A stretch of DNA of 5,717 nucleotides, from IMG/VR virus record IMGVR_UViG_2671180577_000023, one strand, 5' to 3'. The number at the start of each line of letters is the position of its first letter. The first letter of the stretch is position 1. The position numbers and the translations under genes were made by a program. The notes under the pieces were generated by a model, which searched no databases, was not told the origin of the DNA, and saw only the letters and a list, made by a program, of their open reading frames with translations. The DNA comes from a virus (taxonomy: Duplodnaviria; Heunggongvirae; Uroviricota; Caudoviricetes). Positions 719-4,556 of the stretch are shown piece after piece.

Positions 719-1303
719 ATGACCACTTTTACAAAAGAGCAGTTAATCAGTCATGTTAGTGAAAATGTAAAGGCGATGAAATTTGCAGTAAAACAGACAG
801 CATTCAAAAATTCTCTCGAGGCAATTGAGTTGGATTTAGCACTGGCCCTTGTTGCTCAGGCTTCGCTGGAAGCAGAGCCCGTGCTTTATATGAATCGATT
901 TACCGGAAAGACATTCTCACTGGAAGAGCAACCCGGTGCTGATAAGGAACCGGAAATATACGTGCCGCTATATGCTGCCCCGCCAGACAGCGCCGCCATG
1001 CTTCAGGCTGGAAACTTTCGGGAAAAGAAGGGTTCGTCAACCAATAATTTTCGGGAAATCTCGGAAACGTCAACCAACCATCCGGTAACTCTGGATGGTT
1101 GGATAAGCTGTAGTGAGCGAATGCCGGATGACGGTCAGCACGTAATTATTTTATGTGATGGCGCATTCGTTCTTTATGCGCAATATCGAGACGGTGAGTT
1201 TTTTGATGTAGTCCGTGATGGTGATGAATTTTTCGAAACACAGAGCCGCAATGTAACCGACTGGATGCCGCTACCAGAACCGCCGCAGGAGGTGCGCCAA
1301 TGA
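719..1303 (+). CDS. Phage protein with C-terminal DUF551-like domain (194 aa from ATG 719; alternative GTG start at 659 gives 214 aa)
   Basis: ORF-track 659..1303. ATG at 719 is preceded by AAGGAG with 6-nt spacing. C-terminus WISCSERMPDDGQHVIILCDG...VTDWMPLPEPP follows the recalled DUF551 pattern common in lambdoid prophages. Confidence 0.7.
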   Translation: MTTFTKEQLISHVSENVKAMKFAVKQTAFKNSLEAIELDLALALVAQASLEAEPVLYMNRFTGKTFSLEEQPGADKEPEIYVPLYAAPPDSAAMLQAGNFREKKGSSTNNFREISETSTNHPVTLDGWISCSERMPDDGQHVIILCDGAFVLYAQYRDGEFFDVVRDGDEFFETQSRNVTDWMPLPEPPQEVRQ

Positions 1304-1383
1304 ACTGGCCTGAAGCATTTGCAATTACAGGCGTTGCTATGGCTATCACCTTTTTAGTATATGTTATTTGTCGGTGGGGGTAA
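1300..1383 (+). CDS. Small hydrophobic peptide, 27 aa (MNWPEAFAITGVAMAITFLVYVICRWG), predicted single transmembrane helix
   Basis: ATG at 1300 overlaps the TGA stop of the DUF551 gene (ATGA); AGGAGG lies 7 nt upstream. Not in the ORF track because it is under the size cutoff. Confidence 0.4.
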   Translation: MNWPEAFAITGVAMAITFLVYVICRWG

Positions 1384-1418
1384 AAACGTTCGCCGGGATT
1401 AACACCAAAGGAGGGAAT

Positions 1419-1523
1419 ATGTCGGATGATATATCACTGGCAATGGAAGGTGCGCTGGCTGTTATTGCTGTTGTGGGCGTTTACTGCCTGGTTGTGTTTT
1501 TGATGGATCGACTAGGGAACTGA
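1419..1523 (+). CDS. Small hydrophobic peptide, 34 aa (MSDDISLAMEGALAVIAVVGVYCLVVFLMDRLGN), predicted single transmembrane helix
   Basis: ATG at 1419 preceded by AAGGAGGG (1408-1415). Hydrophobic core flanked by charged residues. Not in the ORF track because it is under the size cutoff. Confidence 0.45.
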   Translation: MSDDISLAMEGALAVIAVVGVYCLVVFLMDRLGN

Positions 1524-2867: not shown

Positions 2868-3185
2868 TCATGATATTACCTGGATCCCGTTTTTCTCTAC
2901 GACTGAAAGAAGGCGAAGAGCGGCACCTCCCGGCCGTTTTACACCACGTTCCCAGTCTGATATCAGGTTTTTACTGACGTTGAGGTATCTGGCAAAAACA
3001 GGTTGAGACAGATGCTCTCGTTCGCGCAGTGCACGGATCCTTTCCGGAGACATTACCGGCGCTGGCTGGAGACAAGTTTCATCGAATTCTCGCATAGTCT
3101 GTTTCGTTACTGCGCCGATATCATGAAGCGATTCCATCATTTCATGTACGGATGCAAGCGCATCACTGCGGTAATTTTTACTCAT
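2868..3185 (-). CDS. HigA-like antitoxin, XRE-type helix-turn-helix (COG2944-like), 105 aa
   Basis: ORF-track 2868..3185. C-terminal SPERIRALREREHLSQPVFARYLNVSKNLISDWERGVKRPGGAALRLL matches the recalled HTH antitoxin family partnered with RelE/ParE-like toxins. Its ATG (3185-3183) overlaps the stop of the upstream toxin frame (ATGAGTAA), the toxin-first order typical of HigBA. Confidence 0.8.
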   Translation of the reverse strand: MSKNYRSDALASVHEMMESLHDIGAVTKQTMREFDETCLQPAPVMSPERIRALREREHLSQPVFARYLNVSKNLISDWERGVKRPGGAALRLLSVVEKNGIQVIS

Positions 3186-3548
3186 TGGGTACCTCCGTAA
3201 ACTGACCCTGTAGAATCAGTTGTGCCAGTTGTTCATCTGTTAGATTGAGTACGTGAGGAGCCGCCTTCCGAAATGCACTTTCCGCAGTAGCGGTTATATT
3301 TTCACGTTCATTTTTTGCGTATGCATATACGAAAAAGGCCCTTGTGCCGACGCGATAGAAAATGATTGTGCGATAACCGCCAGATTTGCCGCCACCGACT
3401 CGTGGCAGACGTTGCTTGATAACGCCGTTACCCAGGTTTGCTGAGATAAGCCCGTTATCAGCCTGTTTAACAATTTCGCGCAGTGATTGGTCGGATATTT
3501 TGTTTTGCGTGCAAATCGCTCAAACCAGGCGTTTTTAAAAATGCGCAT
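3178..3548 (-). pseudogene. RelE/ParE-superfamily (HigB-like) toxin gene, disrupted by a frameshift after codon ~16
   Basis: From ATG 3548-3546 the frame reads MRIFKNAWFERFARK, the conserved N-terminus of this family, then runs into unrelated sequence (ORF-track 3294..3611). The rest of the toxin (KISDQSLREIVKQADNGLISANLGNGVIKQRLPRVGGGKSGGYRTIIFYRVGTRAFFVYAYAKNERENITATAESAFRKAAPHVLNLTDEQLAQLILQGQFTEVPNE) is intact in another frame with no start codon of its own. The break lies in the A-rich tract AAAACAAAATAT (about 3495-3506). Confidence 0.7.
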
Positions 3549-3570
3549 TTTTTGTTCCGTTATTAATGTA

Positions 3571-3890: not shown

Positions 3891-4556
3891 ATGGCTGTTC
3901 AAATTTCTGTCGAAAACCTTTCCCCTGTTACCTATAACCAGATCCCCGTAATTACTACTGAACTGTTGGCTCACCTTTACGGAACAAAAATCAAAAACAT
4001 TTCTGATAACTTTCTGAACAACACGACGCGATTCATGCCCGGAAAGCATTACTTTAAAATTGAAAAAAACGAATTACGCGAGTTTAAGAACAGACCCGAA
4101 ACAATCGGGTTAGTTGGTAAAAATGCCCGCTCCCTCATCCTCTGGACAGAACGCGGCGCAGCCCGTCACGCAAAAATGCTCGAAACCGATCGGGCGTGGG
4201 AGGTATTCGAAAAACTGGAAGACTGCTATTTCAGCCAGGGAAAAACAGCACCAACCGAACAGCAGCCGCAGATTCAGCCACAATTCACAGCCGAAGAAAT
4301 CATCCTCCTTTGCTACATGCAGCTCTGGATGGAAAAAGCCCAGGACATCAGCAAACACCTGTATCCCATTATGAAAGAGCTGAACTCCTCATACACGAAC
4401 AAGCTGTATGACATTGCGTTTGAGACCATCTACATGGTGACGAAGAACAGAGACGCGCTACTGAGGGAGGTAACACGTCTCGACATGTCAAGTTCCGTTA
4501 TCCAGCGGGCCATGCCAATGCTGAAAAGCCTGCGGGCAAGACAATTTGAATTCTGA
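3891..4556 (+). CDS. Antirepressor-like protein with N-terminal ORF6N/KilA-N-type domain, 221 aa
   Basis: ORF-track 3891..4556; GAGG lies 5 nt upstream of the ATG. N-terminus MAVQISVENLSPVTYNQIPVITTELLAHLYGT...FMPGKHYFKIEKNELREF matches the recalled ORF6N pattern of phage antirepressors. Confidence 0.75.
   Translation: MAVQISVENLSPVTYNQIPVITTELLAHLYGTKIKNISDNFLNNTTRFMPGKHYFKIEKNELREFKNRPETIGLVGKNARSLILWTERGAARHAKMLETDRAWEVFEKLEDCYFSQGKTAPTEQQPQIQPQFTAEEIILLCYMQLWMEKAQDISKHLYPIMKELNSSYTNKLYDIAFETIYMVTKNRDALLREVTRLDMSSSVIQRAMPMLKSLRARQFEF

Follow-up and report, generated by a model that had tools for sequence, protein, structure and literature searches.

Two short genes for predicted single-pass membrane microproteins, in separate modules between a DUF551 gene and hok/sok of a lambdoid Escherichia coli prophage

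Background

No class of bacterial and phage genes is annotated less completely than that of the small membrane proteins. Among the described examples are AcrZ, MgtS, MgrB, PmrR and CydX, enterobacterial small inner-membrane regulators of 20-50 amino acids (aa) with one helix, which are often unannotated and bind a larger membrane protein. A further set, known from prophages and plasmids, comprises the short single-helix inner-membrane peptides Hok/Gef, Ldr, Ibs, TisB, ShoB and ZorO. Here we analyse two short open reading frames (ORFs), ORF1 and ORF2, which encode peptides of 27 and 34 aa in a Caudoviricetes sequence of 5,717 nucleotides (nt) (IMG/VR record IMGVR_UViG_2671180577_000023), called below, at its full length, the window.

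With the regulators of the AcrZ/MgtS type the two peptides have in common the size, the single helix and the missed annotation, and it is by analogy with them that a mode of action is proposed below. These regulators are chromosomal and their partners have been identified, whereas ORF1 and ORF2 are phage-borne and share no sequence with them, the likeness being one of size, topology and small-residue motifs only. The type I toxins are alike in architecture, and ORF2 is moreover linked to a hok/sok locus, but there is no sequence similarity to ORF1 or ORF2, as HOK_GEF matches only the neighbouring gene at 1769-1924. They differ also in that ORF2 has a strong and accessible Shine-Dalgarno sequence and is highly translated in healthy cells, and in that no antisense RNA was detected with Rfam.

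ORF2 itself has already been recorded. It is 100% identical to the RefSeq protein WP_001278450.1, i.e. to ECs_5710 in prophage Sp6 of E. coli O157:H7 Sakai, and lies within XECs145 of Hücker et al. (2017), in which 20 further aa precede ORF2 in the same frame (54 aa in all; PMC5597208). All these names stand for the same 34 aa in the same place, between a DUF551 gene and hok/mok; XECs145 differs only in its longer form, read from an upstream ATG without a Shine-Dalgarno sequence, while the start chosen by the Prokaryotic Genome Annotation Pipeline (PGAP), behind such a sequence, gives 34 aa.

The last group to be considered comprises the Ead/Ea22-like and DUF551 proteins (PF13935, PF04448), whose stop codon is overlapped by ORF1 homologues in most loci. 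On the other hand, ORF1 is a separate cistron, for which no in-frame fusion was found, and it also follows genes of other kinds (the L0139 type of phage 933W and the type ending in …GLISVEDVLR).

Based on the data presented below, we suggest that ORF1 and ORF2 are genuine single-pass inner-membrane microproteins, carried as prophage accessory genes in two separate modules, a reading to which we give a probability of roughly 0.62.

Results and discussion

Anatomy of the two reading frames

The two ORFs and their Shine-Dalgarno sequences are placed in the window as follows:

1287-1292, + strand: Shine-Dalgarno sequence of ORF1 (AGGAGG), 7 nt before the ATG, within the last codons (Q-E-V) of the DUF551 gene
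1300-1383, + strand: ORF1, 27-aa microprotein from the ORF list, one predicted transmembrane helix at about residues 6-24
1408-1415, + strand: Shine-Dalgarno sequence of ORF2 (AAGGAGGG), the spacer between its GGAGG core and the ATG being 4 nt, at the short end of the usable range
1419-1523, + strand: ORF2, 34-aa microprotein, coding sequence (CDS) called by PGAP, acidic N-terminus and one transmembrane helix at about residues 11-29

The original prediction, made from the letters of this DNA, had placed two hydrophobic peptide genes here, each behind a good ribosome-binding sequence, and both the sequence and the ORF list confirm the two frames and the AGGAGG motif in front of each. This hexamer occurs only four times on the + strand (at 646, 1287, 1409 and 5007), in every case 4-7 nt before a start codon. 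The spacing had been called proper, which is right for ORF1 and, with 4 nt from the GGAGG core, a little generous for ORF2. The ORF1 peptide, MNWPEAFAITGVAMAITFLVYVICRWG, is read from the ATG at 1300 to a TAA ending at 1383, and the ORF2 peptide, MSDDISLAMEGALAVIAVVGVYCLVVFLMDRLGN, from the ATG at 1419 to a TGA ending at 1523. As the start codon of ORF1 overlaps the upstream stop as ATGA (1300-1303; the TGA of the DUF551 gene is 1301-1303), the proposed translational coupling of ORF1 to that gene is structurally correct.

Among the 99 six-frame ORFs of at least 20 aa, Hok ranks first in hydrophobicity, ORF2 second and ORF1 third (maximum 17-residue Kyte-Doolittle means of 2.95 for ORF2 and 2.34 for ORF1). 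AlphaFold2 models ORF2 as a single helix spanning residues 3-33 (predicted local distance difference test score, pLDDT, 90.6). One helix per peptide, with charged ends, had been expected, and the charges are indeed found at E5 and R25 in ORF1 and at D3, D4, E10 and D30, R31 in ORF2. We consider it likely that both peptides are membrane-inserted helices, as predicted. Their topology is probably N-out/C-in, because the only basic residue (R25 or R31) comes after the helix.

The length of such short ORFs is not significant by itself; what speaks for them is their Shine-Dalgarno sequences, their hydrophobicity and, most of all, the comparative evidence.

Coding-type conservation

For each set of unique nucleotide sequences, substitutions were counted along a minimum spanning tree, with site counts after Nei and Gojobori, and the ratios of nonsynonymous to synonymous substitution rates (dN/dS) listed here are approximate:

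ORF1, all codons: 55 unique sequences; dN/dS 0.32 versus 1.31 and 1.87 in the other frames; substitutions at codon positions 1/2/3, 52/49/136
ORF1, codons 8-27: 55 unique sequences; dN/dS 0.37 versus 0.96 and 1.83; 51/37/113 (p=2e-11)
ORF2, long form: 8 unique sequences; dN/dS 0.15 versus 1.16 and 2.80; 4/2/13
ORF2, short form: 8 unique sequences; dN/dS 0.26 versus 0.57 and 1.63; 15/4/23
ORF2, combined: 16 unique sequences; dN/dS 0.30 versus 0.64 and 1.49; 27/11/43 (p=8e-5)

The conservation signal is frame-specific in both ORFs. The original prediction had staked the two genes on coding-type conservation in homologous prophages, and the low dN/dS of both, confined to the proper frame, answers this in their favour. 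In the 55 unique ORF1 sequences W3, P4 and A6 are invariant and G11, Y21, R25 and W26 nearly so. In a relative from strain OkiPb01706 (locus L003) ORF1 carries a 6-nt deletion that keeps the frame, and ORF2 differs from the window copy at 7 nt, 6 of which are synonymous. It is likely, in our opinion, that ORF1 is a real coding gene, and for ORF2 the likelihood is slightly higher still.

These data bear directly on an explanation without any peptide function, according to which the ORFs would be translated by-products, ORF1 serving as a cis device that ends upstream translation or keeps ribosomes on the mRNA, and ORF2 being a young orphan carried along with hok/sok, while the constraint would stem from ancestry, recombination or selection on RNA or DNA. 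The very narrow distribution of ORF2, its absence from otherwise identical hok loci (933W and E. coli M6) and the existence of damaged ORF1 alleles would be in line with it, as would the RNA of 1300-1523, which folds slightly better than shuffled sequence (z=-1.9). It is opposed by the frame-specific excess of synonymous changes, which holds in both ORFs across deep divergence (16/27 residues identical between the ORF1 copies of the window and 933W, and 15/28 shared residues identical between two subfamilies of ORF2), and by the (near-)invariant residues of ORF1 listed above. Furthermore, the start and the Shine-Dalgarno sequence of ORF2 are kept, including a GTG-to-ATG change in a plasmid copy, and an intact ORF2 survives on an IncF plasmid that has lost hok. 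We regard an absence of peptide function as decidedly improbable. A structured non-coding RNA over 1300-1523 was considered separately and rejected, as the folding score reaches z=-1.9 only, Rfam gives no match and the frame-specific substitutions point to coding.

The ORF1 family and its neighbours

The gene in front of ORF1 is:

719-1303, + strand: DUF551-domain gene of the mosaic Ead/Ea22-like type (Pfam PF04448, E=1.1e-20; PGAP WP_000206792.1)

Its N-terminus (MTTFTKEQLI) is common to other genes that precede ORF1 homologues. Full-length homologues of 27 aa, with 52-67% identity, were found by tblastn in at least 92 phage records, and a DNA pattern scan added more than 100 IMG/VR contigs. 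Its carriers include Stx1 and Stx2 (Shiga-toxin) phages (933W, VT1-Sakai and VT2-Sakai), several siphoviruses, the virulent Vequintavirinae phage Av-05 and P1-like phages. The rarely annotated members bear the signature MxWP(E/D)AF…YSICRWG and have the following traits: about 27 aa, an N-terminal M-x-W-P-E/D-A-F, G11, a hydrophobic core, a C-terminal (C/F)-R-W-G and a start that overlaps the upstream stop. The ORF1 of the window shows every one of them, and homologues 52-80% identical to it in aa sequence keep the length, the MxWP(E/D)AF N-terminus, G11, Y21 and R25-W26. In a scan of one genome per species the ORF1 pattern occurred only in E. coli and Shigella flexneri, i.e. the close family has a narrow host range.

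The overlap of stop and start codons, as ATGA or TAATG, was seen in all eight loci gathered independently of the IMG/VR pattern, and it persists with upstream genes that end in at least three unrelated ways (…LPEPPQEV[NR]Q, …GLISVEDVLR and …LKNIEQEVNR). The commonest gene upstream of ORF1 homologues encodes a mosaic Ead/Ea22-like protein ending in a DUF551 domain (…LPEPPQEV[NR]Q). Downstream the surroundings vary: among 63 unique sequences with enough flank, ORF1 is followed by non-hok sequence in 40, directly by the hok promoter in 14 and by ORF2 and then hok in 9, which leaves only 23/63 with hok downstream. The two ORFs, presented earlier as a pair, thus belong to different modules, ORF1 travelling with the Ead/Ea22-like or DUF551 gene and ORF2 with hok/sok.

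As to annotation, the exact ORF1 sequence of the window was not found in a collection of 15 billion proteins and PGAP makes no call for it. The family as such lacks RefSeq annotation and has no place in any family library searched; a few GenBank submitters name its members 'hypothetical', 'bacteriophage' or 'prophage protein'. ORF2 is annotated by PGAP in every RefSeq genome inspected, including ML35 and Xuzhou21, and its exact sequence is present in the protein collection from about a thousand contigs. The statement that both genes are hidden and rarely annotated consequently applies to ORF1 and has to be withdrawn for ORF2, which RefSeq holds as WP_001278450.1 (ECs_5710).

A fusion of DUF551 and ORF1 was suggested by 90% clusters that join ORF1 variants with DUF551 proteins of 121 and 185 aa; these proteins contain no ORF1 sequence and the fusion was dismissed as an artefact. 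The same kind of clustering places very short peptides with unrelated long proteins, e.g. ORF2 with a xanthine dehydrogenase, and such groupings mimic gene fusions in an artefactual way. A named, experimentally studied homologue was sought in the K-12 prophages CPS-53, Rac and Qin, where neither ORF was found (DLP12 and e14 lie outside this comparison). Searches with Pfam, PHROGs, NCBIfam and PADLOC did not place either peptide significantly in any family, the lowest E-values from PHROGs being 0.0065 and 0.12, while no NCBIfam match reached the cutoffs and PADLOC returned nothing meaningful.

Translation of ORF2 and the question of toxicity

According to the ribosome profiling of the Sakai strain, XECs145 had a transcriptome value of 79.1 and a translatome value of 346.1 reads per kilobase per million (RPKM) in lysogeny broth (LB), with a ribosome coverage value (RCV) of 4.35 and a coverage of 0.99; in brain heart infusion (BHI) the respective numbers were 121.3, 150.1, 1.14 and 0.84 (PMC5597208). 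Its translation was nearly off in cold/osmotic stress, an inner-membrane location was predicted, and a machine-learning classifier returned the verdict 'real' (PMC5597208). Thus, the ribosome occupancy whose absence the original prediction had listed against its genes is already published for ORF2, and these profiles in LB and BHI indicate that ORF2 is translated in uninduced lysogens. No Shine-Dalgarno sequence was found for the upstream start chosen for XECs145 (PMC5597208), which fits the ATG at 1419 as the true start of ORF2. A literature search over the full text of about 8 million papers found no mention of the peptide strings or WP_001278450, nor did the supplements to the EDL933 translatome paper, to the preprint on the Enterobacteriaceae microproteome and to Pro-SMP finder contain a match.

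Membrane-depolarising toxins were among the roles initially envisaged. In such a case one or both peptides would be type I-like membrane-damaging toxins, comparable to Hok, Ldr, Ibs, TisB or ZorO, which weak expression or an antisense RNA yet to be discovered would keep in check, and they would help to maintain the prophage or to abort infections. Type I toxins are likewise small, with one hydrophobic helix and charged ends, and ORF2 adjoins a bona fide system of this type, hok/sok. Moreover, ORF2 is tandemly duplicated in the O55:H7 strain TB182A, and tandem copies are typical of the ldr, ibs and zor loci. On the minus strand, two weak matches of the sigma-70 type also face the start of ORF2 and ORF1, but shuffled sequence gives about as many (1.2±1.2 expected), and no antisense promoter is convincing. 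The sok RNA covers only 1600-1774, no Rfam antitoxin family matches 1300-1523, and neither peptide matches HOK_GEF or another toxin family. The Shine-Dalgarno sequence of ORF2 is consensus, unstructured and unobstructed, whereas the translation of type I toxins is tightly silenced; ORF1, which virulent phages also carry, is translated together with an ordinary early gene. Above all, ORF2 is strongly translated in healthy exponential cultures (RCV 4.35; PMC5597208). A potent toxin role for ORF2 in particular is disfavoured by this good translation in LB and BHI lysogen cultures, and we consider toxicity of either peptide quite unlikely.

A holin-like role, likewise proposed at the outset, is disfavoured by position. 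The ORFs are flanked by DUF551 and hok/sok in an early region of the nin type, with ninB, ninE, rusA and Q further downstream, and are not part of a lysis cassette, and no holin family of Pfam or PHROGs matches ORF1 or ORF2.

Linkage of ORF2 to hok/sok

The elements that surround ORF2 on its downstream side, together with the left repeat, are:

1378-1388, + strand: 11-bp direct repeat GGGTAAAAACG, left copy (repeat search), spanning the ORF1 stop, at the left edge of a 175-bp stretch
1532-1553, no strand: perfect palindrome of 22 bp, CGATATGGGAATTCCCATATCG, located after ORF2 and before the hok promoter, containing an EcoRI site
1553-1563, + strand: 11-bp direct repeat GGGTAAAAACG, right copy (repeat search), at the right edge of the 175-bp stretch and running into the hok promoter region
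1600-1924, + strand: hok/sok type I toxin-antitoxin locus, i.e. hok mRNA leader with sok target, mok and hok

The region 1290-1600 is present, at a coverage of at least 80%, in 672/5426 complete E. coli genomes. Besides the long form found in the window there is a short form of ORF2 of 29 aa, (M/V)LVLKCALAIAAVMAIYCLAVVLMDRLSD, in which AGGAGG is separated by a 5-nt spacer from a GTG or ATG start; it occurs in four phages (Tritos, Evi, mEp460 and HannyBb), in records of the plasmid collection, among them an IncF plasmid (L215), and in some IMG/VR contigs. The 5' motif of the hok mRNA follows 74 nt after the long form in 92/94 loci and 40 nt after the short form in 8/8, so the hok promoter, 40-74 nt downstream, is the only invariant neighbour of ORF2 across both subfamilies.

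In 933W and E. coli M6, which have no ORF2, ORF1 abuts the hok promoter directly via …TAAAAACGGTTTGCGG…. Compared with them, the window has 175 extra bases, consisting of ORF2 and the 22-bp palindrome and bounded by the 11-bp direct repeat; the difference may be an insertion or a deletion. The RNA of the palindrome forms a 9-bp hairpin (-16.4 kcal/mol, z=-2.7) without a U-tract, and a canonical intrinsic terminator was rejected, as the terminator scan makes no call there either. The palindrome may be a protein-binding site, an RNA stabiliser or a recombination scar. In OkiPb01706 one of its arms has lost 1 nt, with no compensation in the other.

Several rearrangements were observed around ORF2. 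In TB182A (L004, 2630-2841) the duplicated unit, which contains ORF2, measures 107 bp; the second copy of the gene has a TTG start and no Shine-Dalgarno sequence, and PGAP gives WP_001278454.1 for both copies. In UTME-12 a paa island replaces all sequence upstream of the last 8 nt of ORF2. The IncF plasmid NZ_CP065616.1 (L215, 1216-1305) carries the short form of ORF2 intact, with AGGAGG and a start at ATG; the hok leader beside it is truncated after about 75 nt and the hok gene is missing. A conserved promoter-like TTGAGT-17-CATATT lies upstream of this ORF2, and phage Tritos likewise has TTGAAT-17-CATATT upstream.

The arrangement of ORF2 is relevant to a further suggestion of the original prediction, i.e. 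superinfection exclusion. The peptides would act as exclusion or phage-defence factors that block the entry of competitor DNA, for example by binding a host transporter, with ORF2 supplied by the lysogen and ORF1 made early after infection. ORF2 is expressed in the lysogenic state and resembles a moron, since it forms a cassette by itself, complete with a Shine-Dalgarno sequence, that a locus may have or lack between the 11-bp repeats; it is surrounded by genes for accessory and conflict functions (hok/sok, Doc, a HigBA-like pair, ant modules), and the stripes of small residues described below suggest binding to another transmembrane protein. Nevertheless, neither peptide is similar to any family of PADLOC, PHROG, Pfam or NCBIfam, and D17 or premature-stop alleles of ORF1 are common in resident prophages, precisely where an exclusion function should be kept. 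On balance this role seems unlikely.

Proposed mode of action

We hypothesize that ORF1 and ORF2 are both accessory genes that a lambdoid prophage carries in its early (nin-type) region. ORF1 would be the last cistron of a mosaic Ead/Ea22-like or DUF551 gene array, in which a ribosome that ends the upstream gene might restart at the ATGA, aided by the AGGAGG in the last codons of that gene; if it restarts in this way, ORF1 would be made together with the upstream gene early in lytic growth. ORF2 would constitute a separate small cassette with its own Shine-Dalgarno sequence, directly upstream of the hok/sok promoter.

Stripes of small residues can be read in both helices (G11/A15 and A13/A17 in ORF1, G11/A14/A17/G20 in ORF2). 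Each peptide might act by helix-helix contacts through these stripes, with itself or with a larger membrane protein as the partner. Because such stripes suggest packing against another helix, we favour modulators over pore-forming toxins, although the odds that the peptides are modulators rather than toxins are only about even. It is also conceivable that some prophage hok/sok loci include ORF2 as a protein component, tuning or neutralising Hok or marking the locus for expression in the lysogen, and that, in parallel, the ORF1 family supplies a membrane partner for the lysogeny-promoting Ead/Ea22-like proteins and ties their poorly understood module to the cell membrane. This is a speculation that we hold to be very improbable.

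Several points weigh against our interpretation of the ORFs as two genuine single-pass microproteins. Both the peptides as proteins and their membrane insertion are predictions. ORF1 is shorter than the 30-aa cutoff of the Sakai ribosome-profiling study (PMC5597208) and thus fell outside it. For ORF2, the XECs145 reads may multi-map across several near-identical prophage copies, the Sakai study used an upstream start without a Shine-Dalgarno sequence, and a consensus scan of the + strand gave no promoter for ORF2. In addition, some of the ORF1 sequences were collected with a pattern in which codons 1-7 are fixed (these are dropped in the row for codons 8-27), and the spanning-tree dN/dS is approximate, with a small sample for ORF2. 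The latter is a narrow prophage orphan restricted to E. coli: copies occur in only 4 phage records and 9 records of the plasmid collection, and a search of 1.84 billion representative proteins gave only 7 near-identical matches, hence the small sample. Its absence from many hok loci is a sign of weak constraint. Finally, an ORF1 allele with an aspartate in mid-helix (D17), MIWPEAFAITGVAIAIDFLVYVICRWG, is found in Sakai Sp6 (L224, 3344-3427) and in many IMG/VR contigs, and an allele with a stop at W26 in ten IMG/VR loci. Such damaged-looking alleles suggest a weak or dispensable function in resident prophages; ORF1 may be decaying there, or the Asp may be functional.

Setting of the window

Positions 1100-1750 of the window are 100% identical to the chromosome of E. 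coli ML35 and 99.7% identical to O104:H4 strains, and the annotation around them is that of the early-right region in a lambdoid prophage of E. coli. The order upstream of ORF1 is cI/cro/cII-like regulators, replication genes, DUF1627, DUF977 and DUF551; downstream of ORF2 follow hok/sok, a Doc/Fic toxin pair, a HigBA-like pair, two antirepressor modules, ninB, ninE, rusA and ninH.

The hok mRNA leader with the sok target matches Rfam RF01794 at 1600-1774 (116.9 bits, E=5e-27), and hok (1769-1924; PGAP gene name hokD) matches Pfam HOK_GEF (PF01848, E=5.6e-24). In the classical arrangement of plasmid R1 the mok and hok frames differ. In the window mok starts at 1712, is in frame with hok and uses the same stop, which results in an N-terminally extended Hok (1712-1924, + strand); mokW and hokW of 933W are annotated in the same one-frame arrangement.

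A Fic/Doc-family toxin gene (2332-2817, + strand; Pfam PF02661) is preceded by an ORF of 59 aa without a Pfam match (2134-2313), presumably a Phd-like antitoxin. The gene of a RelE/ParE (HigB-like) toxin (3178-3552, - strand), upstream of a helix-turn-helix antitoxin gene (2868-3185, - strand), appears frameshifted: the N-terminus MRIFKNAWFERFARKTK lies in one frame and the remainder (ISDQSLREIV…TEVPNE, followed by the stop) in another, an A-rich run near 3500 being the site of the shift. In ML35 PGAP calls only an N-terminally truncated CDS, and this toxin is probably inactive. Two regulatory units similar to immI of P1/P7 (3639-3837 and 5224-5422, + strand), each composed of c4-a1b1 targets, isrK and C4 antisense RNA, match Rfam RF03163, RF01394 and RF01695, all exceeding the gathering score. 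Each of them precedes an antirepressor-type gene, i.e. an ORF6N gene (3891-4556) and an ant-like gene from 5475.

Conclusions

What is new here is ORF1 as an easily annotated phage membrane microprotein, while the annotation and the ribosome profiling of ORF2 were already known. On present evidence the two ORFs form a sound but ordinary example of accessory phage microproteins. The ORF1 family is conserved over many E. coli and Shigella phages, including Shiga-toxin phages, and yet it is missing from RefSeq. Annotating ORF1, and recording ORF2 (ECs_5710) as a lysogen-expressed cassette linked to hok, would be small but concrete gains. If either peptide were indeed a modulator of Hok, of the Ea22-like lysogeny module or of phage entry, this would matter for how stable and how inducible Stx prophages are.

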